A stretch of 48,094 bases of DNA from the sequence record SRR20825006_950. One strand, written 5' to 3'. This document shows, piece by piece, positions 1-34,173 of the stretch. The translations under genes and the position numbers were made by a program. A model generated the notes under the pieces. It did not search any database. It was given only the letters and a program-made list of their open reading frames with translations, and was not told the origin of the DNA. The number at the start of each line of letters is the position of its first letter. Position 1 is the stretch's first letter.

Positions 1-1866
1 GACTTCAATATGGGGGCGATGGAAAACAAAGGGCTGAATATTTTCAATGCTGCCTGTGTGTTAGCCAGTCCGGAAACCGCTACCGATCAGGATTTTTATA
101 CCATTCAGAGTATTGTCGGCCATGAGTATTTCCACAACTGGTCCGGCAACCGTGTGACCTGTCGTGACTGGTTTCAGCTCAGCCTCAAAGAAGGCTTTAC
201 CGTCATGCGGGATCAGCAGTTCAGTGCCGATTTAAACTCGGCGGCCGTCGCCCGCATAGACGATGTCGATAAACTTCGCAGCATGCAGTTTGCTGAAGAT
301 GCCGGCCCCATGGCACATCCGGTGAGACCAGATTCCTATATCGAAATCAGTAACTTCTATACGGTGACGATTTACGAGAAGGGTGCTGAGGTCGTTCGCA
401 TGATCAAAACGCTGGCTGGTGAAGCCGGTTTCCGTAAAGGCACCGATCTGTATTTCGAGCGCCATGATGGTCAGGCCGTGACCACCGATGATTTTGTTAG
501 AGCGATTGAAGATGCCAACGATCTCGACCTGTCACAGTTCAGACGCTGGTACAGCCAGGCAGGGACACCGGAACTGACAGTTGAAACTGACTATGATGCG
601 GTTGAACAGCGGCTGACAATGACAGTCAGTCAGCACTCTCCCGCAACACCGGGACAGGATAAAAAGCAGCCACTCCACATTCCTTTTGCCGTCGGGCTTA
701 TGGATAAGGATGGAGACAGTCTGCCATTGCAACTGGAAGGTGAGAGTAAACCTTATCCCGCTGATACCCGTGTTTTGTCTGTGACTGAATCCAGCCAGAC
801 TTTTGAGTTTATTAATGTCGCTAGTGAACCGCTGGCATCAGTTCTGCGTGGCTTTTCAGCACCGGTTAAACTCAATCACAAGCTCAGCAATCATCAGCTT
901 GCTTTTTTGATGGCCAATGACAAGGACAGTTTTAATCGTTGGGATGCCGGGCAGAAACTGATAATTAATATCCTGTTATCGCTGGTCACTGACATACAGC
1001 AACAAAAACCATTGACCTTGTCACCGCTGCTGGTAAATCAGTTTGAACAGGTATTGACGGATAAAAAACTGGATCCGGCGCTCATCGCCAAGATGCTGAC
1101 TTTGCCAACTGAGAATTATCTGGCTGCGCAAATGGATACGCCGGATGTGGATGCGATTCATCAGGCCCGCGAATTTGTGAAGCGCCAGCTCGCGGCGGCT
1201 TTAAAAGCGCAGTTTGATCAAACCTATCAACGCATGAGTGCAAACAAGTCTTATGAATTCAATGCGTCGGAAATGGCGCGCCGCAGCCTGAAAAACCTCT
1301 GCCTCTCCTATCTTGTTGCCAGTGGGGATCCGTTCCAGGTTCAGCGCTGTCTGCGGCAGATGAAGCTGGCCGATAATATGACGGAATTGCTTGCCGGTCT
1401 CAGATTGATGGCTGATCAAATCGGGCCTGAGCGGGAGCATGCTTTACGTGCTTTCTACGAGCAGTGGAAACACGACAAGCAGGTGGTCGACAAATGGCTG
1501 GCAGTGCAGGCGGCTTCAAAGCTGCCCGACACGCTCCTTCGCGTCAAAGGGCTGATGCAGCATGAAGCTTTCAACATCAAGAACCCGAATAATGTGCGTG
1601 CCCTGATAGGCATGTTCTGTCGCAACAATCCGGTCAACTTCCATGCGAAAGACGGCTCCGGTTATCACTTTCTTGCTGAGCAGATCCTGATACTGGACAA
1701 GCTTAATCCGCAAGTGGCGGCACGCATGTTAGGGGCGCTGAACTCATGGCGTCGCTATGATGCCGGTCGTCAGGCCCTGATGAAGCAAGCGCTGGAAAAC
1801 ATTGCTGCAGAAGAATCATTGTCAGCGGATGTTTACGAGATTGTGACCAAATATCTGGCTGCCTGA
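1..1866 (+). CDS. pepN: Aminopeptidase N (M1 zinc peptidase), 5' end outside window
   Basis: Frame is open from base 1 (DFNMGAMENKG). GAMEN motif, HEYFH...E zinc motif and PepN C-terminal region (NPNNVRALIG, NPQVAAR). Confidence 0.97.
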   Translation, partial: DFNMGAMENKGLNIFNAACVLASPETATDQDFYTIQSIVGHEYFHNWSGNRVTCRDWFQLSLKEGFTVMRDQQFSADLNSAAVARIDDVDKLRSMQFAEDAGPMAHPVRPDSYIEISNFYTVTIYEKGAEVVRMIKTLAGEAGFRKGTDLYFERHDGQAVTTDDFVRAIEDANDLDLSQFRRWYSQAGTPELTVETDYDAVEQRLTMTVSQHSPATPGQDKKQPLHIPFAVGLMDKDGDSLPLQLEGESKPYPADTRVLSVTESSQTFEFINVASEPLASVLRGFSAPVKLNHKLSNHQLAFLMANDKDSFNRWDAGQKLIINILLSLVTDIQQQKPLTLSPLLVNQFEQVLTDKKLDPALIAKMLTLPTENYLAAQMDTPDVDAIHQAREFVKRQLAAALKAQFDQTYQRMSANKSYEFNASEMARRSLKNLCLSYLVASGDPFQVQRCLRQMKLADNMTELLAGLRLMADQIGPEREHALRAFYEQWKHDKQVVDKWLAVQAASKLPDTLLRVKGLMQHEAFNIKNPNNVRALIGMFCRNNPVNFHAKDGSGYHFLAEQILILDKLNPQVAARMLGALNSWRRYDAGRQALMKQALENIAAEESLSADVYEIVTKYLAA

Positions 1867-1867
1867 G

Positions 1868-2281
1868 ATGTACAAGTTACATCCGAAACTGGCACAGGAC
1901 ACCTTCAGCATCGGCGAGTATGAGCTCAGTGAAGTGCGACTGATGAATGATACCCGTTATCCCTGGGTGATTTTGGTGCCAAAGCGGCTTAATGTGGGCG
2001 AGATTTATCAGCTTGATGAACAAGGGCAACAGCGGCTGATTTATGAGTCGAGCTTCACTGCACAGCAGATGATGCAGCTGTTCTCGGCAGAGAAAATGAA
2101 TGTGGCGGCGATAGGGAATGTCGTTGAGCAACTGCATCTGCATCATGTCGCGCGTTTTACTACTGATGTCACCTGGCCACTGCCGGTCTGGGGCATTGGT
2201 GAAGCGCAAGCCTATTCGGATGTCGCTGCCAAAGCGATGCTTTCGCAGCTCCGAAGAGCGCTGGATGACTTGCTGATTTAA
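1868..2281 (+). CDS. HIT family protein
   Basis: LHLHHVAR histidine-triad-like motif, YPWVILVP, GNVVEQLH. Starts 1 nt after the pepN stop. Confidence 0.9.
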   Translation: MYKLHPKLAQDTFSIGEYELSEVRLMNDTRYPWVILVPKRLNVGEIYQLDEQGQQRLIYESSFTAQQMMQLFSAEKMNVAAIGNVVEQLHLHHVARFTTDVTWPLPVWGIGEAQAYSDVAAKAMLSQLRRALDDLLI

Positions 2282-7679: not shown

Positions 7680-9824
7680 ATGATGCCTCGCAGACTTGCC
7701 TTGCGGGGCAGATTGTTTTTCCTGCTGCTACTGCTGTGGGGCGGGTTTGCATTCCACTCTGGCGCAGAGGCTGCCCAGCCGTCGGTTGATCTTGCCGATC
7801 TGAACTGGGAGTACCATTGGGGCGACCTGGCAGTCACCGATGCCGGGTCCGACTTTCCCGCGGATGCTTCACAATGGCAGTCAATTGCCTTTCCGGCCAA
7901 TCCTCCCGGGCGCGATGAACATCAATATGTCTGGTTTCGCGCAGTGTTACCCGAGGCCAATCTGTCTGAGCCGGTCATTTTCATTACCAGTATTAACCTC
8001 AATGTCGAAGCCTATCTCGACGACCAGCTGATTCACCAGTTCGGTGAGCTGGGAGACAACAAAAATCAGCGCTTTATGGGCTGGCCCTGGCACCAGATTA
8101 CGCTGCCCGAAAACTTTGCCGGTAAAACGCTGTATCTCCGTATTTATTCCGATTACACCGATATTGGCTTGTGGGGTGAAGCCAGGCTAATGGAACGCTC
8201 CAATATGCTGCTGCATGTTATCAGCAGTGGCCTGCATGAGTTGATTGTTGCCGCTTTTTCTCTGCTGGTGGCGTTTGTGACGCTGGTGTTTGCCCTGTTT
8301 CGTGGTACCAAAAAAGAATTTTTCTATCTCGGTTTGTTCTCTCTTGCCACAGCGGGTGTGCTTATCGGGGAAAACCTCGCAATACAGCTGGTCATCCAGT
8401 GGCCATTACTGAAAACCTATCTCGCCGCAGTCAGTTACTTCTCGATGCCGATATTCATCGCCATGCTGCTTTATCACTGGCTAAATGGGGCCAAAGGCAG
8501 CCGACTGCTCAAATTTGTGGCTCAGGTGCACCTCGCTTATCTGGCATCGGCAGTATTACTGTCATTGACGGGCGTGGTGAATCTCGCCATCTTTTTCCCG
8601 ATATTTGATGCGCTGTTCGTTGTGTCCTTGCTCATCATGATGCGGGTTGTGCTGCAAATATCGAGACAGGTCAATTACTCCCAGCAACTGGTGTTGGGCG
8701 CATTTGCCGTTTATGCCATCTTTTTACTGGTCGATATGCTGGTGGCACACAGTTTCCTGCCATGGGTCGATTTCCCTATCGCCATAGGCGGTCTATTGTT
8801 TGCTCTGGTGCTGGTGGTGGTTTCGATACGCAGTTATGTGCACACCAATCTGTCGATGGAACAACTGAATCAGCAACTTGAACAACGGGTCACTGAACGC
8901 ACAGCTGAACTGCATGCCTACGTTGAAGCAGAACAACAGCGCCGCAAAGAACTGGAACGGGAAAACCAGTTCAGTGCGGAACTGGAAAAATTCAATGTGG
9001 CGCTGCAATCCTGCCAGGATATTGATGAAGCCAAGGAGCTGATGCGAGGCGGGCTCGCCGCTGTTTTCAGCCCGACCCGGGTTCAGGTGAGTCTGGATGG
9101 CGATACCATCAATACACTACCGGACGCACAAATCCGTTTACAGCAGTTGGAGGGGGGCAGCCAGGTTCTGGCCTCGCTGACACTGGATGGGGGTGATGAG
9201 GCATTACCCAGAGACCGTCTGGAAGACTTCATCCGCCGTGCTTCTCAGCGGCTCACGGTAACACTGGGCAATATCAAGCTGCGCGAGGATTTACAGCGTT
9301 ACTCCTTTGAGGATTCCCTGACCGGTTTACGCAACCGTCGTTTTTTTGATGACGCGCTGGCACGGGATATTCAGCTCGCCAAGCGTAATCAAACCGCTTT
9401 GTCATTGTTGGTTTGCGATATCGATCATTTCAAGCGCTTCAATGATGAGTACGGTCATGATGCCGGCGATGCCGCTTTGCAGGCGGTAGCTGAGACATTG
9501 CAGCAATATTTTCGTGAGAGTGATATACCGTGTCGCTTTGGCGGTGAGGAGTTCGTGGTTTTGATGCGTGATGCCGAAGCTGAAGATGCCAGAGCCAAGG
9601 CGGAAAAGCTCAGAGAGGCTGTGCAGGCGCTGGATATCCACTATCGTGACGAGAAACTCTCACACCTCACCATTTCCATTGGTGTTGCCTCTTTAACTGA
9701 ACAGGACATCGATGCAGAAACGTTGCTACGCCAAGCTGATCAGGCACTGTATGCGGCCAAGCAGGGCGGGCGCAACCAAGTCAAATCTGCTCATGACAGA
9801 ATCAACAGAGAAAATCTGGCCTAA
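7680..9824 (+). CDS. Membrane-bound diguanylate cyclase with 7TM-DISM-like sensor
   Basis: Signal/periplasmic domain, about 7 hydrophobic helices, coiled coil, DSLTGLRNRR, DIDHFK.FND.YGH..GD, RESD I-site and RFGGEEF. ATG 7680 chosen to avoid overlap with purL. Confidence 0.9.
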   Translation: MMPRRLALRGRLFFLLLLLWGGFAFHSGAEAAQPSVDLADLNWEYHWGDLAVTDAGSDFPADASQWQSIAFPANPPGRDEHQYVWFRAVLPEANLSEPVIFITSINLNVEAYLDDQLIHQFGELGDNKNQRFMGWPWHQITLPENFAGKTLYLRIYSDYTDIGLWGEARLMERSNMLLHVISSGLHELIVAAFSLLVAFVTLVFALFRGTKKEFFYLGLFSLATAGVLIGENLAIQLVIQWPLLKTYLAAVSYFSMPIFIAMLLYHWLNGAKGSRLLKFVAQVHLAYLASAVLLSLTGVVNLAIFFPIFDALFVVSLLIMMRVVLQISRQVNYSQQLVLGAFAVYAIFLLVDMLVAHSFLPWVDFPIAIGGLLFALVLVVVSIRSYVHTNLSMEQLNQQLEQRVTERTAELHAYVEAEQQRRKELERENQFSAELEKFNVALQSCQDIDEAKELMRGGLAAVFSPTRVQVSLDGDTINTLPDAQIRLQQLEGGSQVLASLTLDGGDEALPRDRLEDFIRRASQRLTVTLGNIKLREDLQRYSFEDSLTGLRNRRFFDDALARDIQLAKRNQTALSLLVCDIDHFKRFNDEYGHDAGDAALQAVAETLQQYFRESDIPCRFGGEEFVVLMRDAEAEDARAKAEKLREAVQALDIHYRDEKLSHLTISIGVASLTEQDIDAETLLRQADQALYAAKQGGRNQVKSAHDRINRENLA

Positions 9825-9928: not shown

Positions 9929-11584
9929 ATGTTTGATAGTGTATTTACGCAAATCGGTGCCATTTTGGGCTTGGCGGCTATCGGCGGTATATTAGCTCAG
10001 TTTCTCAAACAACCGTTGATCGTCGCCTTCATCGTGGTGGGTATTCTGATTGGCCCATCTGGCTTTGAAATGGTCTCTCACAGCAGCGAAATTGAGTTGT
10101 TTGCCAGGCTCGGTATCGCGCTTCTGCTATTCGTCGTTGGTCTCAAGCTCGACTTACATGTTATCAGGACAGTGGGGCCTGTCGCCTTAGCCTCCGGCCT
10201 GGGTCAGGTATTTTTCACTTCTGTGGTTGGGTATCTGATTGCCCTCATGCTCGGTTTTGAGCATGTCCCTGCCATCTATATCGCAGTGGCACTGACCTTT
10301 TCCAGCACCATTATTATCGTCAAATTACTCTCAGATAAAAGAGAAGTAGATGCTTTGCATGGTCGTATCGCAGTCGGTTTTCTGATCGTGCAGGATATTG
10401 TGGTGGTTTTGGTGATGATTGGACTCACCGCCTATGGACAAGCCGACAGCGATACCAGCCTGGGATGGGAAGCGATTCAAATCATCCTCAAGGGGGGCGC
10501 GATGCTCCTCGTCGTCGCTTTGTTGATGCGCTATGTGCTGCCATGGTTGCTGCATCGACTGGCGCACTCCACTGAGTTATTGATGCTTTTTGCTATTGCC
10601 TGGGCCGTGATCGGCGCGACCACGGGTGAGCTACTGGGATTCAGTAAAGAAGTGGGCGCATTTCTGGCTGGAATTTCAATCGCCTCCACAGCTTATCGGG
10701 AGCAAGTCGCCGCTAGACTAGTCAGTCTGCGTGACTTTCTATTGCTGTTTTTCTTTGTTGAGTTAGGAGCCGCACTGGATTTGAGTTTGCTCGGTTCACA
10801 AGTTTTCGCGGCAAGCATCTTTTCAGTCTTTGTTCTGTTTGGTAACCCGCTGATTGTCATGGCGATTATGGGGTATATGGGGTACCGGAAACGAACTGGT
10901 TTTCTAGCTGGGCTGACCGTGGCTCAAATCAGCGAGTTCTCGCTTATACTCGCTGCACTGGGTCTGTCATTAGGACATCTCAGTCAGGAAGTCGTCGGCT
11001 TGATCACCCTGGTCGGACTGATAACTATCAGTGCCTCTACTTATATGATTCTCTATTCACATCAGATTTATGAACGCTATGCCCGGTTCTTATCTGTTTT
11101 TGAAAGACGAATTCCTTATCGTGAAGTGAATAATGCAGCGGCGTCTGAGCGTAATATAGAGATTCTTCTGGTTGGCCTTGGCCGGTTTGGTGCCTCGGTG
11201 GCAAGCAACCTGGCAAAGCGTGGCTGCCATTTTATGGCAGTGGACTTTGACCCTGAAGCGGTCAGGCGCCACAGCAGAGATGGTTATAACGTCCGCTACG
11301 GCGATGTGGAAAACCCTGAGTTTGTCGCGTCACTCCCGCTGGATAAAATTAATTGGGTAGTCAGTACGGTACGTGACAGCCAGATAAATCGCATGTTATT
11401 GAATGGCTTGAGACAACATGCTTACAAAGGGAAAACGGCTTTTTCAGTGACAAACAGACATGATCAGGTCATGTTTGCCAATGAAGGGGTGAATGTTGTG
11501 CTGGAGCCCTATTCTGACGCTGCTAAAGAAGCAGTGGATAAACTCCTCTCTGGTCGTTCCGGGGACAAAAAGGCAGATGAATGA
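9929..11584 (+). CDS. CPA2-family cation:proton antiporter with C-terminal TrkA-N/RCK domain (Kef-like)
   Basis: FSSTIIIVKLL, GFLIVQDI, QISEFSLI. C-terminal GLGRFG...YGD. Confidence 0.9.
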   Translation: MFDSVFTQIGAILGLAAIGGILAQFLKQPLIVAFIVVGILIGPSGFEMVSHSSEIELFARLGIALLLFVVGLKLDLHVIRTVGPVALASGLGQVFFTSVVGYLIALMLGFEHVPAIYIAVALTFSSTIIIVKLLSDKREVDALHGRIAVGFLIVQDIVVVLVMIGLTAYGQADSDTSLGWEAIQIILKGGAMLLVVALLMRYVLPWLLHRLAHSTELLMLFAIAWAVIGATTGELLGFSKEVGAFLAGISIASTAYREQVAARLVSLRDFLLLFFFVELGAALDLSLLGSQVFAASIFSVFVLFGNPLIVMAIMGYMGYRKRTGFLAGLTVAQISEFSLILAALGLSLGHLSQEVVGLITLVGLITISASTYMILYSHQIYERYARFLSVFERRIPYREVNNAAASERNIEILLVGLGRFGASVASNLAKRGCHFMAVDFDPEAVRRHSRDGYNVRYGDVENPEFVASLPLDKINWVVSTVRDSQINRMLLNGLRQHAYKGKTAFSVTNRHDQVMFANEGVNVVLEPYSDAAKEAVDKLLSGRSGDKKADE

Positions 11585-30102: not shown

Positions 30103-30438
30103 TTAACTGATTTTTGAGAGTAACTTGCGAACCTCGTCAATCTTTAATGGCCGTACCAGACGAGCCACTTCCTTACCATCCTGCAGCAGTATCAAAGTCG
30201 GCCAAAGCTTGACCTTGAACAGACGCCCCAGACGCTTGCCTTTGCCGTCATAGATTCTGATATGACGTAGTTCTGAATGTTCAGCGAGGGCTTGTTTTAT
30301 GGCAGGTGTGGCGGCCTGACAATGTCCACACCAGGGTGCGCCAAATTCAAGTAGCGTGACACCGGCAAGTTGGCTGATGTGTTCGAATGTAACTGCTTCT
30401 TCTGAGTAATCAGCGTTAAAACCAATCATTGGCTTCAT
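30103..30438 (-). CDS. Thioredoxin family protein
   Basis: EFGAPWCGHC, FKVKLWPTLI...GKEVAR. Likely start ATG 30438 after GGAG. Confidence 0.88.
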   Translation of the reverse strand: MKPMIGFNADYSEEAVTFEHISQLAGVTLLEFGAPWCGHCQAATPAIKQALAEHSELRHIRIYDGKGKRLGRLFKVKLWPTLILLQDGKEVARLVRPLKIDEVRKLLSKIS

Positions 30439-30482
30439 CTCATGTACTCCACACAATCGATTTTAGATTACCCGGTGAAGGA

Positions 30483-30559
30483 AGCGAACGCTGAACTTTT
30501 CGGCAATTTTGGAGCCGCGATGCGGTGTAAAATTGTCCGATAGCAGCGTATTGTAAAAT
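30483..30559 (-). mobile_element. Integron attC site (degenerate), downstream of the HNH cassette
   Basis: Minus strand ATTTTACAATACGCTGCTATCGGACAATTTT...AAAATTGCCGAAAAGTTCAGCGTTCGCT, directly after the stop codon. Palindromic and similar to the attC at 32373-32450. Confidence 0.75.
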
Positions 30560-31426
30560 TTAATCATAGAGATACCAAGACTGATACCTATTAGAAGTAA
30601 TCGCATTGCCAGCACTTTTTTCTTTTTGGTTACATTCTTTACAGAGCAACTGGATATTTGATACGTCATTTAACCCGTGTTTAGCTAGCGGAACTATATG
30701 ATCGTAATTTTCCTGGTTGTCCAGATTAAGGGTCCCAGAAAGGTCTTTATCACACAGCACACAACGCCCACGATCTCTAAAATATACAGCTCTTTTAACC
30801 CAACTCGGTATGGTGGTTCGTTTCAAGACACCGGGTCGGGAAAACAGAGACTCTTGCTCTTCTGGGGGAGCTATGTCGACTTGCCGCTCAAGCTCGCCTG
30901 ACATCATCTGGTTAAAAATCATCAGAAGGCTTCTGTTCTGAAAAAGAACGTGAAAAACCTCTTTAACCGTTTGCTGTACTAACATTTCATAGTCGCCGCT
31001 TAGGCGGAGTTCGCCCATGTATTCATAAACATCATTTTCAGAGGCATCTACAAACGACTTTCCGACGCTCTCTAAATGGGACTCAAAACTCAAGCATTCA
31101 ATGTCATGAAACTCGAATGCTTGCTCAATCGGTAACCTCTGCGGTTTCATGTCAATTATCGCCGAAGGGATATCTCTGAACTTTTCGATCAGTTCCTTCC
31201 GGTCCTCTAACCCTATATTCGATGCTTCTTCATAGTAGATATCCTCTACTATGAACTCGATAAACTCGTGGAATATTGAATATTTTTGAAACGGGGAAAC
31301 CAAATAAAATATTCGCTCGTCACAATAAAAATCGTTCAGATTTCGTATATAAGAAAACTGATCGTGAAGTACATTTCTCACCACGTTACAGAAGTAGTAA
31401 GTTTCATAGAAACGAGCTTCGAGCAC
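30560..31426 (-). CDS. HNH endonuclease domain protein (integron cassette 3)
   Basis: RDRGRCVLC...YDHIVPLAKHG.ND.SNIQLLCKECN. True start is probably GTG 31426 after AAGGAG, downstream of the attC. Confidence 0.88.
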   Translation of the reverse strand: MLEARFYETYYFCNVVRNVLHDQFSYIRNLNDFYCDERIFYLVSPFQKYSIFHEFIEFIVEDIYYEEASNIGLEDRKELIEKFRDIPSAIIDMKPQRLPIEQAFEFHDIECLSFESHLESVGKSFVDASENDVYEYMGELRLSGDYEMLVQQTVKEVFHVLFQNRSLLMIFNQMMSGELERQVDIAPPEEQESLFSRPGVLKRTTIPSWVKRAVYFRDRGRCVLCDKDLSGTLNLDNQENYDHIVPLAKHGLNDVSNIQLLCKECNQKEKSAGNAITSNRYQSWYLYD

Positions 31427-31441
31427 TGGCTCTCCTTGACA

Positions 31442-31502
31442 ATTTAACGCCCGTGTAATAGGTGCGAGGTTGCGGGCGTCCTGAGTGATGCGCTTGTTAT
31501 CT
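31442..31502 (-). mobile_element. Integron attC site (61 bp)
   Basis: Minus strand AGATAACAAGCGCATCACTCAGGACGCCCGCAACCTCGCACCTATTACACGGGCGTTAAAT. The R'' box overlaps the TAA stop; R' is GTTAAAT. Confidence 0.85.
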
Positions 31503-32360
31503 GATACACAAACCAACCCCATCCACATCAATATATGTTAAGTGATCATCTTCACCATATTCTGAGCGAAAGTCATTTAGACCTTTCCACTCCCCCTTGG
31601 CTATCGACTCATGAAGCAATAAGTACAACGAACCCTTCGGAGGAAAATACGGTATGCGGTAAGCGAGAAAGCTGTGCGGAAGATCATCAATTTGATTTGA
31701 AGGTTGCATATCTATCTGCTCAACAGAGTCTAGGATTGAGCGATAGTAAATAGATATTAACTTTCGATTGACATTTTCAGAGTATTCAATGTCATTACCT
31801 ACCGGATCATGAAACTTAACCGCTGGCGACTCGTATAAATTGTAAGCAACGCTAGCTACAGAAAAATGGACTGGTATTGGTCCATCTCTTGACTGCGATT
31901 TATGGTCAACCATCTTGTTAGCTGATACCGATGAAACCTTATAGCCCTTTGCTTCAACCGCAAATTGTCTTGACAGCGTGTCACAGTACAGATCAGGTCT
32001 TTTGCCCTTAATGGGGAACCCATGTTGAACCATTGCGTCCTCATAATTATGAGTATACCTAGCGCAATAGATTCTTTTAGCTAGAAAATCAGCTAGCCCT
32101 TTACCAATTCTGTTGGATATCTGACCAAGTTCAGTTGGGTCATGAAAAATGACATCTGGTGCCGAAAAATAATCACCGCCATATCTCCAATACTCAACGA
32201 ACTCAAGCATAAACCCGGAAAACCTAAAAAAATTATATAGAGAACGATTGATTCCCATACCTGCAAAGGCCAAGTGCTTCGTAAACTGAAGATACGACAA
32301 ACTAAACTCTAGATCTCTGAAATTTCCTTTTTCATCTAAATGCTCAACCTTTAGCTTCAT
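31497..32360 (-). CDS. Hypothetical protein with PD-(D/E)XK nuclease-like motif (integron cassette 2)
   Basis: ATG 32360 after AAAGGA. KRPDLY...FAVEAKG catalytic-like motif. AT-rich sequence. Confidence 0.7.
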   Translation of the reverse strand: MKLKVEHLDEKGNFRDLEFSLSYLQFTKHLAFAGMGINRSLYNFFRFSGFMLEFVEYWRYGGDYFSAPDVIFHDPTELGQISNRIGKGLADFLAKRIYCARYTHNYEDAMVQHGFPIKGKRPDLYCDTLSRQFAVEAKGYKVSSVSANKMVDHKSQSRDGPIPVHFSVASVAYNLYESPAVKFHDPVGNDIEYSENVNRKLISIYYRSILDSVEQIDMQPSNQIDDLPHSFLAYRIPYFPPKGSLYLLLHESIAKGEWKGLNDFRSEYGEDDHLTYIDVDGVGLCIR

Positions 32361-32372
32361 GGTATTCCTTTC

Positions 32373-32450
32373 AGATAGCGCCACGCTCCGCGGCAAATTT
32401 GTAGCGCAGCGGAAATTTTGTCCTGCAGCAGCACCAGCACCTTGTTAGCC
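32373..32450 (-). mobile_element. Integron attC site (78 bp, R' box altered)
   Basis: Minus strand GGCTAACAAGGTGCTG...GGACAAAATTTCCGCTGCGCTACAAATTTGCCGCGGAGCGTGGCGCTATCT. R'' GGCTAAC overlaps the stop codon. Confidence 0.82.
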
Positions 32451-33104
32451 ATTTTCCATCTCAGCAATAAGGCTACGGATAAAGCTATCAAAAACTCTTA
32501 GTGCCTCGATCACCACATTCTCATTAAAGAATATTTGGGCATCTTCTTGATTCATGACTTCCTGGCGCAATTCAACACCGCCAATTTTGCACAATTTTGA
32601 ATATGTGGATTTTGGTGAATCAGGCTCATAATCGACATATCCATCTCTGTGAGCCACTGAGTTTCTCAGAACACCTAGTAATTTAATTGCCTGCCAATCC
32701 GACGTCGAAAAGGATTTTTCTAGACCGACAACCTTAACCAGATAGTTTCTTGCTCTCTCAATTCCTTGCCCGTGTATATCTTTTAAAGAAAGCCTTATAT
32801 TATCCGAGCCTTGGTACTCAACGCAGAAGTCATTAAGAATCTTCTCGAAGTAGCCATAAGCAACCATCAACTGGGAATACCATTGAAGTCTAGGAAGTGT
32901 TTCTGCCGTTTCTATCCAGTGATCGTTTACGTCTCTAAAAAAAGCATCCTGCTCGAATTCGTCCAAGCCATCTAGCTGTTCATTCATCTGGTCTTCTAAT
33001 TGTCGAAGCTCGTCCTCCAGCCCCTTCTTGGACACTGAGCAATGACGCACATAGGTCGGAAGCTCCCAAAGTGACTTATAAAGAATGTGACTTTGTCTAG
33101 GCAA
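32445..33104 (-). CDS. Hypothetical protein with HEPN-like RxxxxH motif (integron cassette 1)
   Basis: 219 aa, probably largely helical. YGYFEKIL...LRNSVAHRDG. TTG start after GGAG. Confidence 0.7.
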   Translation of the reverse strand: MPRQSHILYKSLWELPTYVRHCSVSKKGLEDELRQLEDQMNEQLDGLDEFEQDAFFRDVNDHWIETAETLPRLQWYSQLMVAYGYFEKILNDFCVEYQGSDNIRLSLKDIHGQGIERARNYLVKVVGLEKSFSTSDWQAIKLLGVLRNSVAHRDGYVDYEPDSPKSTYSKLCKIGGVELRQEVMNQEDAQIFFNENVVIEALRVFDSFIRSLIAEMENG

Positions 33105-33126
33105 AATCGTATTTCTCCATTCTGAT

Positions 33127-33175
33127 GGCTAATAGCGCGTTTATGAGGCCGTTGACCTCATATTAATTATTAGCG
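33127..33175 (-). mobile_element. attI-like site heading the cassette array (no integrase in window)
   Basis: Minus strand ...taataattaatatgaggtcaacggcctcataaacgcgctATTAGCC. TTAGCC is complementary to the cassette-1 R'' GGCTAA(C). Confidence 0.55.
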
Positions 33176-33385
33176 TGAAAGGGTCATAATTCGATGAGAA
33201 AAATAATCCTCTTTGTATGTGTATGAATTTATGAGTTTTTTATAAAAGTTTAGAGGGGGGAATTAATCGTGAAACGTTGACGGTTAATTTCCGGATTAGA
33301 TTGAATGATGTGAGGTGAGAGGGCATTAATGTGAATTCCTTTTCAACATGTTCATTTCCATCTGATTTCTCCAAGCTCTTCCTGG

Positions 33386-33955
33386 CTACAAAGGCTGTGG
33401 CTGTTCCTGATGCTGTCGCTTAAGTAAAACATACAAGGCCCCAGTCCCGCCATCTTCCACCGTGGCACTACAAAAAGCGAGCACTGCAGGGCTTTGCCGC
33501 AGCCAGTAATTGATTTTGCTTTTGAGGATGGGCTTGTTATCTCTTGAGCCCCAGCCTTTGCCGTGAATGATGCGTACGCAGCGGAGTTGCTGCTGCTGGC
33601 AGAGTTCCAAGAACTGACCCAGAGCGGGTTCTGCTTTGATGAGGGTCATACCATGGAGGTCGAGTTCGGCTTCCAGATGCACTTTGCCGTTTCGGAGTTT
33701 GGAGAACAGTTTGTGCTGAATGCCGGGGCCGCGATATTCCAGATATTCCTCATTGCCCACGGTGTCGGGCGCGAACATATCGGAGAAAGCCTGGCCGGTG
33801 ACTTCATGTTCGATGCTGCGTTTGCGGCGGGTTTTGACTTCAGGTTTGGGGCGTTCTATCAGTTGGCTTTTGTGGCGAATCGGCGTGGCATCGCGCATTT
33901 CCTGTCGAAACAGCGCGAAGTCATCGTTCTCCTTATCTTTCTGCCTGTCAGCCAT
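33386..33955 (-). CDS. Smr/MutS2 C-terminal domain endonuclease (SmrA-like)
   Basis: LDLHGM, VRIIHGKG, LKSKINYWL, VLAFCSA...DGGTGALYVLL. Confidence 0.92.
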   Translation of the reverse strand: MADRQKDKENDDFALFRQEMRDATPIRHKSQLIERPKPEVKTRRKRSIEHEVTGQAFSDMFAPDTVGNEEYLEYRGPGIQHKLFSKLRNGKVHLEAELDLHGMTLIKAEPALGQFLELCQQQQLRCVRIIHGKGWGSRDNKPILKSKINYWLRQSPAVLAFCSATVEDGGTGALYVLLKRQHQEQPQPL

Positions 33956-34051
33956 GAGCGGGATAAAACCTGAGTGTGGGATGGGATATAGCGTTTATTG
34001 TGCCAGATGACGCTTGTGTAAAAAACGGCTTTTGATTTACCATGCCAGTCA

Positions 34052-34140
34052 CTTGTCGGGGTGCCCGAGCGAAATGTTTCGCAGAGGCTGAGATGAAACC
34101 CGTTGAACCTGAAGAAGTTAAGACTTCCGTAGGAAACAAG
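34052..34140 (+). ncRNA. TPP (THI-box) riboswitch
   Basis: P1 cttgt/acaag, ggggtgc...gctgaga...acccgttgaacctga...cgtagga. Directly upstream of thiC. Confidence 0.95.
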
Positions 34141-34173
34141 CAGGATAACTGCAAACACCCTGGGTGTATCTAA

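Follow-up and report, generated by a model that had tools for sequence, protein, structure and literature searches.

Between the core gene smr and a thioredoxin-like gene, the 48,094-nt DNA stretch SRR20825006_950 (hereafter the window, meaning the whole stretch that was analysed) carries three co-oriented minus-strand genes, g1, g2 and g3, which lie downstream of smr and are each followed by a sequence related to the attC recombination sites of integrons (Table 1). We read this island as a remnant integron platform, consisting of an attI-type site and three promoterless single-gene cassettes without an integrase gene, and assign this reading a probability of about three in four. The host of the window is a Methylophaga species and the stretch is chromosomal: its Smr protein shares 97% identity with the one encoded in a Methylophaga metagenome-assembled genome, and the remaining large open reading frames (ORFs) are housekeeping genes, including pepN, purL, thiC/O/G and gyrA. 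The content of guanine plus cytosine is 0.39–0.45 across positions 30400–33400, compared with 0.47–0.59 in the flanks. In five Methylophaga relatives, smr is 94–97% identical, and homology with relatives picks up again at the start codon of the thioredoxin-like gene.

Table 1. Features of the variable region and its flanks in the window, in the order of transcription.
Feature	Position	Strand	Basis
smr, conserved core gene for an Smr-domain protein; flanks the array upstream	33386..33955	-	Pfam Smr, E 6e-27
attI-type recombination site ("anchor"), 75 nt	33127..33201	-	homologous element downstream of smr in 10 relatives
g1, cargo of cassette 1, 219-aa HEPN-like protein	32445..33104	-	R147-N148-x3-H152 motif
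attC1, decayed	32373..32450	-	model R2, 17.6 bits, E 0.036
g2, cargo of cassette 2, 287-aa PD-(D/E)xK-like protein	31497..32360	-	R122-P123-D124 ... E137-x-K139
attC2, weakened stem	31442..31502	-	model R2, 15.4 bits, E 0.13
g3, cargo of cassette 3, 288 aa, C-terminal HNH nuclease domain	30560..31426	-	Pfam HNH
attC3, decayed	30483..30559	-	model R2, 3.8 bits; alignment to real attC
Thioredoxin-like gene; bounds the clade's variable region downstream	30103..30456	-	Pfam Thioredoxin, E 6e-13

Core sites and attC relatives at the cassette junctions

The core sites were found where the reading made from the sequence alone (the sequence-only reading) had placed them. Cassette 1 opens with ATTAGCC (33133..33127), which pairs with GGCTAAC at its end (32450..32444), cassette 2 opens with GCTATCT (32379..32373) and closes with AGATAAC (31502..31496), and cassette 3 opens with GTTAAAT (31448..31442) and closes with ATTTTAC (30559..30553). 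In each cassette, start and end are complementary at six of seven positions (n = 3 junctions), and in every case the conserved triplet holds the lone mismatch. The outer bases of R' and R'' that are not part of the consensus, three in each, are complementary in all three cassettes, for which our own arithmetic gives a chance probability of (1/64)^3. The R'' boxes of attC1 (GGCTAAC) and attC2 (AGATAAC) include the stop codons of g1 and g2, respectively. A canonical attC core has R'' RYYYAAC, R' GTTRRRY and paired L boxes forming a hairpin, and all three sites depart from it: attC1 has GCT in place of GTT in its R' box (GCTATCT), attC3 has TAC in place of AAC in R'' (ATTTTAC; R' GTTCGCT), and attC2, with an R' box reading GTTAAAT, has lost L-box pairs.

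Rfam, which holds no attC family, could not supply a reference, and the first structure-based scans were dropped because of many false positives, after which attC sites were curated by hand. Integrases were recorded across 83 genomes of the bacterial family as matches to TIGR02249 above its cut-off, which 29 of the genomes contained. From five family genomes, 27 clear, hand-curated attC sites in 20 kb beside intI were used to build a first attC model, R1. Run unfiltered on the five training arrays, R1 returned 45 matches, all on the strand that the orientation of intI predicts, and 18 of them, at 17.1–48 bits, lay outside the training set. The rebuilt covariance model, R2, whose calibration is rough, was searched unfiltered against both strands of the window and four related loci (L001, L002, L004 and L005; 94 kb altogether). 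A fifth locus, L003, gave no match to R2 under default filters. The best match in the 94 kb was in L002 (9353-9434; 20 bits, E 0.008), the second and third were window 32450..32373 and 31502..31442, i.e. attC1 and attC2, and noise started at E 3.3. All three start at a stop codon within the variable smr locus, on the coding strand. The two window matches are 870 nt apart and thus fall under the definition of an attC-site cluster that has no integrase (CALIN), which asks for at least two covariance-model attC sites less than 4 kb apart; attC3 counts as a third site by alignment alone.

Comparison with shuffled sequences pointed in the same direction, as all three window sites surpassed 200 of 200 shuffles in their similarity to real attC sites. 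The best local alignment of attC1 to a real attC scored 37 against a null maximum of 27, a value reached by none of 200 shuffles. For attC3, a colinear alignment over 65 nt with the real attC L047:18034-18111 scored 33 against a null maximum of 25 (0/200 shuffles) and contains a compensated stem (GGTTTT/AAAACC versus AATTTT/AAAATT). Judged by their sequences, the window sites are kin to attC sites that real integrons of this bacterial family carry. The description of the island as an integron cassette array has thus held up, on the strength of the R2 matches, the breakpoints of cassette 2 and the attC sites flanking a g1 homolog (both described below) and the shuffle tests. The outcome that the sequence-only reading had named as speaking against it, no match to an attC model and homologs never found in cassettes, did not occur: R2 matched twice, and homologs of g2 and g1 lie in cassettes elsewhere.

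The attI-type site and the smr locus in relatives

The palindrome before g1 was not an ordinary attC, for which it had initially been taken, since the R2 model gave no match there. The element, here called the anchor, consists of CGCTAAT, 5 nt, a 10-bp hairpin, 6 nt and GTTRRRN, and homology between copies stops at GTT. In the window, R'' CGCTAAT (33175..33169) is followed by the hairpin and by R' ATTAGCC at 33133..33127, which has no intI alongside and reads ATT where the consensus has GTT. In a covariation test of the anchor, 28 of 500 shuffles reached the observed score. A model of the element, R3, found copies in 33 of the 83 family genomes, with up to 8 per genome (carriers include G002, G055, G073 and G076), and 24 of these 33 genomes had no IntI above the cut-off. 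Where R3 matches coincided with intI, or with the intI remnant of G057, a copy was located 125–169 nt upstream of intI and divergent from it in nine of ten genomes (G073, G062, G055, G071, G079, G010, G051, G057 and G077; the exception is G064). Because these copies occupy the attI position, we take the anchor to be the attI-type site of this family. The remaining 20 genomes with intI gave no R3 match and may use a different site.

Eleven copies standing alone were fetched as well, and all nine that were searched with R2 (loci L135-L143) lead into attC arrays that lie on the correct strand. The R' box of the anchor and the R'' box of the first attC are complementary at seven of seven positions in 4/4 arrays adjacent to intI, 9/9 stand-alone arrays and 4/5 arrays linked to smr (17/18 arrays), and the junction heptamer differs between copies in every case, which indicates that each site was loaded independently. 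No description of stand-alone attI copies was found in literature searches that were not exhaustive, a weak negative given the loose word matching.

Two further observations concern the anchor. A short TTTCACGATTAAT-like sequence resembling its left end occurs in the window (33280-33262, minus strand), in L001 (~8660-8680) and in L005 (~8670-8690). In the window and L005, its distance upstream of the anchor is about 60–80 nt, and in L001 it follows closely on smr; going by its sequence, it may represent an older copy that has been truncated. L001 additionally has an anchor-type site at 10220-10294, with AAC in R'' and GTTGCAA as R', which is situated at the far end of the cargo before the thioredoxin-like gene and not beside smr.

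Downstream of smr, strong attC arrays (21–55 bits) are present in five other loci (L012, L020, L006, L023 and L019), of which L012 has four attC sites of 32–55 bits. The smr-linked arrays of the window's own clade are weak, with best scores of 20 bits in L002 and 9 bits in L004 and no match in L001. In the complete, IntI-less chromosome G002, three other arrays (L135-L137) keep attC sites of 40–57 bits. The smr-linked array of G002 contrasts with these strong sites in having one weak site (20 bits). The closest relatives hold wholly different cargo at the smr site, which points to recent turnover, either by integrase or by recombination through the flanks. In L002, this cargo includes PD-T7-4 (E 1e-75) and an ImmA/IrrE-type peptidase, and in L003 an ABC-3C set (CTD11-HNH, MC7 and DUF2326) that matches PADLOC PDC-M68.

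In line with the sequence-only description of the array as integrase-less, no Phage_integrase domain or tyrosine recombinase was detected among the 24 other ORFs of at least 180 aa in the window, tblastn with IntI of the family found nothing there, and IntI above the cut-off was absent from all five closest genomes, which include a complete chromosome. The spacer between smr and the anchor contained no intI remnant detectable by tblastn in the window or in 11 relatives (all E >=0.1). Directly after smr and convergent with it, L008 carries a broken intI (1674-1914, minus strand) that covers residues 1–39 and 270–314 of the family IntI. This remnant was seen in one Methylophaga isolate only; its sequence suggests that intI was lost from an ancestral platform at the smr locus.

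The thioredoxin-like gene itself was considered as a further cassette, for which we found no support: no attC match follows it, although L003 does carry two copies. These two copies bracket a 4-kb segment (L003 11358-15813) in which there is no attC match, and its translations resemble EF-hand proteins, an ATP-dependent DNA ligase and a small gene pair with the look of a toxin-antitoxin system. Inverted repeats of the type ATCAAAGGGGTCAGACA ... TGTCTGACCTTTTGAT were noticed in L002 (~11060-11110 and ~10155-10185) and L004 (~2040-2100); in two relatives such a repeat is placed just upstream of the thioredoxin-like gene, and the model shows no relation between it and attC. On its coding strand, the island has a single promoter-like site (window 30578-30550, minus strand), which lies inside the 3' end of g3 and could drive the thioredoxin-like gene. 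For g1–g3 we infer readthrough from smr. On the other side of the locus, a thiamine pyrophosphate riboswitch (62.9 bits; window 34047-34152, plus strand), the sole Rfam match in the window, precedes thiC in the spacer that this gene shares with the divergent smr.

The three cassettes and their predicted nucleases

The mobility of cassette 2 was assessed in a metagenome scan that yielded 80 loci with g2 homologs. R2 gave 41 matches at E <=1 in these loci, all on the strand of the gene, and an attC match abuts the g2 homolog in 10 of them, by our count including all four loci with at least 76% identity. When the window was aligned with L049, L050, L051 and L052, the upstream DNA was unrelated until G|TTATCTGAAAGGA, from where all five sequences align through the gene. 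The homology of cassette 2 begins at G|TTATCT, outside of which the flanks are unrelated, and ends at GGGCG|TTA in the window, L049 and L051 and at TGGCG|TTA in L052, so that the four loci with an attC model match at the end of homology all end at G|TTA. The alignment of L050 runs to GGGCGTTTC, and the attC model finds no match there after the gene. The cassette starts with GTTATCT, which complements its R'' AGATAAC exactly, as would be the case in a circular cassette; in the window, GCTATCT stands in this place. The sites following the g2 homologs in L049 and L051, which are homologous to attC2, score 36.8 and 36.2 bits. AAC and GTT are intact in attC2, but by our reading of the alignment 3 of the 11 L-box pairs of L049 are missing from it, which accounts for its lower score (15.4 versus 36.8 bits). 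We regard cassette 2 as a proven mobile cassette, a call that rests on the sequence alignment with the four metagenome arrays.

None of the 80 g2 loci contained a homolog of g1 or g3; two apparent g3 matches were translations of the shared attC, read through by an over-long g3 ORF. The three genes thus appear to travel separately, in agreement with the independent capture proposed in the sequence-only reading. The nuclease motifs it had listed are also all present (Rx4H, PD...ExK and HNH), and the first two are invariant within their families.

The g2 motif given in Table 1 was invariant in 29 sequences. PD-(D/E)xK nucleases carry such a motif on an alpha-beta-beta-beta-alpha-beta core. In a structure comparison of the AlphaFold2 model of g2 (predicted local distance difference test score, pLDDT, 86.7) with VIA-align, the best rows were PD-(D/E)xK nucleases (exonuclease, HsdR and Hjc cores), with a Z of only 5.0–6.0 over residues 74–191. 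Foldseek returned no match at E <=0.001, and Pfam, PADLOC, NCBIfam and PHROG had none. The 68 relatives, up to 87% identical, are unnamed or annotated as "hypothetical" and scattered over Vibrio, Chromohalobacter, Pseudoalteromonas, Serratia, Hafnia and others, while a tblastn search of plasmids produced no match.

For g1, R147, N148 and H152 were invariant in 28 sequences. The Pfam score for HEPN_RiboL-PSP (17.7 bits) was below the gathering cut-off of 28.4, so Pfam does not assign g1 to this family. The structure model is helical (pLDDT 91.9), and ranks 1–8 in VIA-align were HEPN or HEPN-like chains with Z 7.5–8.3, values that are middling for helical folds. These features agree with the arrangement that defines the HEPN domain, an Rx4-6H motif in the last long helix of a four-helix bundle, and the neighbours of g1 in the ESM Atlas bear the name RiboL-PSP-HEPN. 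A Foldseek search ended without a match at E <=0.001, NCBIfam has no entry matching g1, as for g2, and none of the 49 homologs carries a Pfam domain. Homologs were found in 3 of the 83 family genomes and in none of 400 sampled genomes of the class, a sample that is no evidence of absence. The close copy among the family genomes, in G059, is 71% identical and interrupted by a stop. It is part of a larger array in which an attC of 30.5 bits ends 22 nt before the gene and another of 11.2 bits begins at its stop codon. Sequence comparison thereby indicates mobility for cassette 1 too, less firmly than for cassette 2.

The GTG start codon of g3 is preceded by AAGGAG at a distance of 6 nt. A longer ORF of 323 aa is discounted as an artefact; of 120 listed homologs, nearly all have 279–314 aa at 97–100% coverage, with four shorter ones covering 65–91%. 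The HNH domain (PF01844) scores 35.3 bits, above the gathering cut-off of 21.4, and the family comprises at least 576 homologs annotated as HNH endonucleases. The N-terminal 205 residues had neither a Pfam assignment nor a usable ESM Atlas match. None of 401 sampled genomes of the class contained g3, which, given the sampling, is again no evidence of absence. The cassette status of g3 is based on the window's own sites alone.

Origin and fate of the array, and comparison with known systems

The site anatomy, the mobility of cassette 2 and, less firmly, of cassette 1, and the catalytic motifs can be combined into the following scenario. An integron integrase would have inserted each cassette at G|TT of a resident site, which would explain why the first bases of a cassette complement the R'' box at its end. 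The cargo comprises three unrelated predicted nucleases, an HEPN RNase-type protein, a PD-(D/E)xK protein and an HNH protein. Thereafter the array would have become fixed through substitutions in the junction triplets, weakening of the attC stems and the lack of an integrase in the clade. Since there is one substitution per junction triplet, the stems are weakened and no integrase was found in the clade, we consider the array a frozen CALIN that is probably immobile.

Several results weigh against this remnant platform. The scores of the window attC sites (17.6, 15.4 and 3.8 bits) are at or under those of the weakest real sites (17 bits). In single-strand folding, the g1/g2 spacer (z +1.0) and the g2/g3 spacer (z -0.7) were no better than shuffles, and only the hairpin after g3 stood out (z -2.8 and -3.3). 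Under the family-specific model R2, 70 of the 80 g2 loci had no abutting attC, and neither of the two g3 homologs detected in family genomes has an attC close by. The region upstream of g1 yielded no promoter-like site, and intI may be located elsewhere in the host genome, outside the 48-kb window. As the window sites match the attC model or real attC sites, yet two of them fold no better than shuffles, they are recognisable but degraded attC relatives.

Alternatively, the gap between smr and the thioredoxin-like gene could be a generic hotspot for defence islands, into which DNA is brought after uptake by homologous recombination via the conserved flanks, with the attC-like sequences as passive relics. 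We regard this as possible, at rather less than even odds. The five closest relatives, with smr identities of 94–97%, have wholly different cargo and IntI in none of five genomes, the sites of the clade are weak or undetected, and natural transformation has been reported to drive cassette shuffling in chromosomal integrons (PMC12614218). However, this explanation concerns recent turnover only and is compatible with an integron origin. Moreover, the complementarity at the junctions shows insertions made by an integrase, and other arrays in the IntI-less genome G002 keep attC sites of 55–57 bits.

Regarding the cargo, we consider it conceivable, at somewhat under an even chance, that g1–g3 act as single-gene effectors against phages or plasmids. 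A defence role is plausible because relatives have PD-T7-4 or an ABC-3C system at this site, and integron cassettes that protect against phage have been reported (Kieffer et al., 10.1101/2024.07.02.601719). Against such a role speak the searches of PADLOC-DB v2, in which g1 (best E 0.0027) and g2 (none) had no significant match and g3 had only weak matches (best E 3.9e-5) confined to the HNH domain. Likewise, none of 25 cassette ORFs from nine other orphan arrays matched PADLOC at E 1e-5, and none of the five ORFs in the smr array of L012 did so at E 1e-3.

Selfish or addictive cargo is the less likely alternative, and other roles take the remaining probability. Here, a homing-type HNH endonuclease, an orphan restriction-like nuclease and an HEPN toxin would stabilise the array or merely persist in it. 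It fits this explanation that the PHROG matches of g3 are phage HNH endonucleases, aligned over the HNH domain only, that the HEPN proteins nearest in fold to g1 are toxins of HEPN-MNT pairs, that toxin-antitoxin cassettes are known from chromosomal integrons (PMC13108822), and that most cassettes of sister arrays are without known function (Pfam matches in only 4 of the 25 ORFs). In contrast, none of the three cassettes includes a partner gene of antitoxin size, g1 and g2 have no PHROG match, and known defence genes are found at the same site in relatives.

That g1–g3 form a single three-component operon, with spacers that are ordinary intergenic DNA or terminators, is very improbable. The genes are indeed closely packed and co-oriented, and two spacers fold no better than shuffles, but g2 occurs alone between attC sites in other arrays and a g1 homolog does so as well, no g2 locus includes g1 or g3, and the spacers show matches to the attC model or to real attC sites. 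Least credible of all is that palindromes and core-site pairs arose by chance in AT-rich intergenic DNA, because, despite the modest E-values (0.036 and 0.13) and the rough calibration of the model, the two matches fell at positions predicted in advance, the boundaries of cassette 2 are exact in four other arrays, no shuffle in 200 reached the similarity of any of the three sites to real attC, and strong arrays exist at the same locus in other species.

Extending the remnant platform to the whole genus, we tentatively propose, as one possibility that is not the favoured one in terms of odds, a distributed integron. An attI-type site would be present in up to 8 copies per Methylophaga chromosome, one beside intI and the others alone, each loaded independently, so that many CALINs would be satellites served in trans or left behind after the loss of intI. 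The window array would be a decaying satellite, and its three nuclease cassettes undescribed single-gene anti-phage effectors on their way to fixation. With one attI-type site heading several arrays, even in integrase-free genomes, the origin and activity of CALINs would become testable with one integrase and one site. The three compact, uncharacterised families of putative nucleases, with 49, 68 and 576 relatives of g1, g2 and g3, respectively, are inexpensive candidates for defence screens.

According to Cury et al. (2016, PMC4889954), CALINs with very degenerate attC sites may be an intermediate step towards the fixation of captured genes, and the window offers a concrete example of this proposed step, in which captured cassettes turn into ordinary genes of the chromosome while their attC sites decay. 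It resembles the CALINs described there in that 4 kb hold at least two attC sites, the cassettes are promoterless and share one orientation, and intI is absent from the vicinity. It differs from that description in being headed by a copy of an attI-type site, in a chromosomal position that carries arrays across the genus, and in having one inactivating-looking substitution per core-site pair. Sedentary chromosomal integrons (G073, G062, G055 and G071) share the 75-nt site, the attC family and the rule of seven complementary positions at the junction; they have intI beside attI, whereas the window site has none and L008 has a broken intI remnant at the same position. The SALIN/attG route as reported by Loot et al. 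(10.1101/2022.09.11.507474) similarly places cassettes away from any integrase, but uses an unstructured attG, while insertion in the window took place at a conserved structured site with a GTT crossover that is shared with the site adjacent to intI.

Concerning the cargo, the phage-resistance cassettes termed BRiCs are, like g1–g3, short cassettes of unknown function stacked in an array, and their report also mentions a small island in a chromosome where defence homologs have pseudo-attC sites (Kieffer et al., 10.1101/2024.07.02.601719). Protection by BRiCs was shown by experiment and in mobile integrons with intI, whereas g1–g3 are candidates by sequence with no significant PADLOC match. PD-T7-4 (PADLOC PDLC04109; DUF4145) is likewise a single-gene cassette in the corresponding smr-linked array of L002, beside an attC match, but it is not homologous to g1, which matches neither DUF4145 nor PD-T7-4. 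Among characterised nucleases, g3 is similar to the McrA-type Type IV restriction enzyme (PDB 6ghc, 287 aa) in length and in the C-terminal position of the HNH domain (residues 211–272 versus 206–268), although this match is not significant (E 0.23) and no relative of known function could be detected for the N-terminal 205 residues of g3. CALINs, the idea of fixation through degenerate attC sites and defence cassettes were thus already known; less expected is an attI-type site in multiple copies that head separate arrays.

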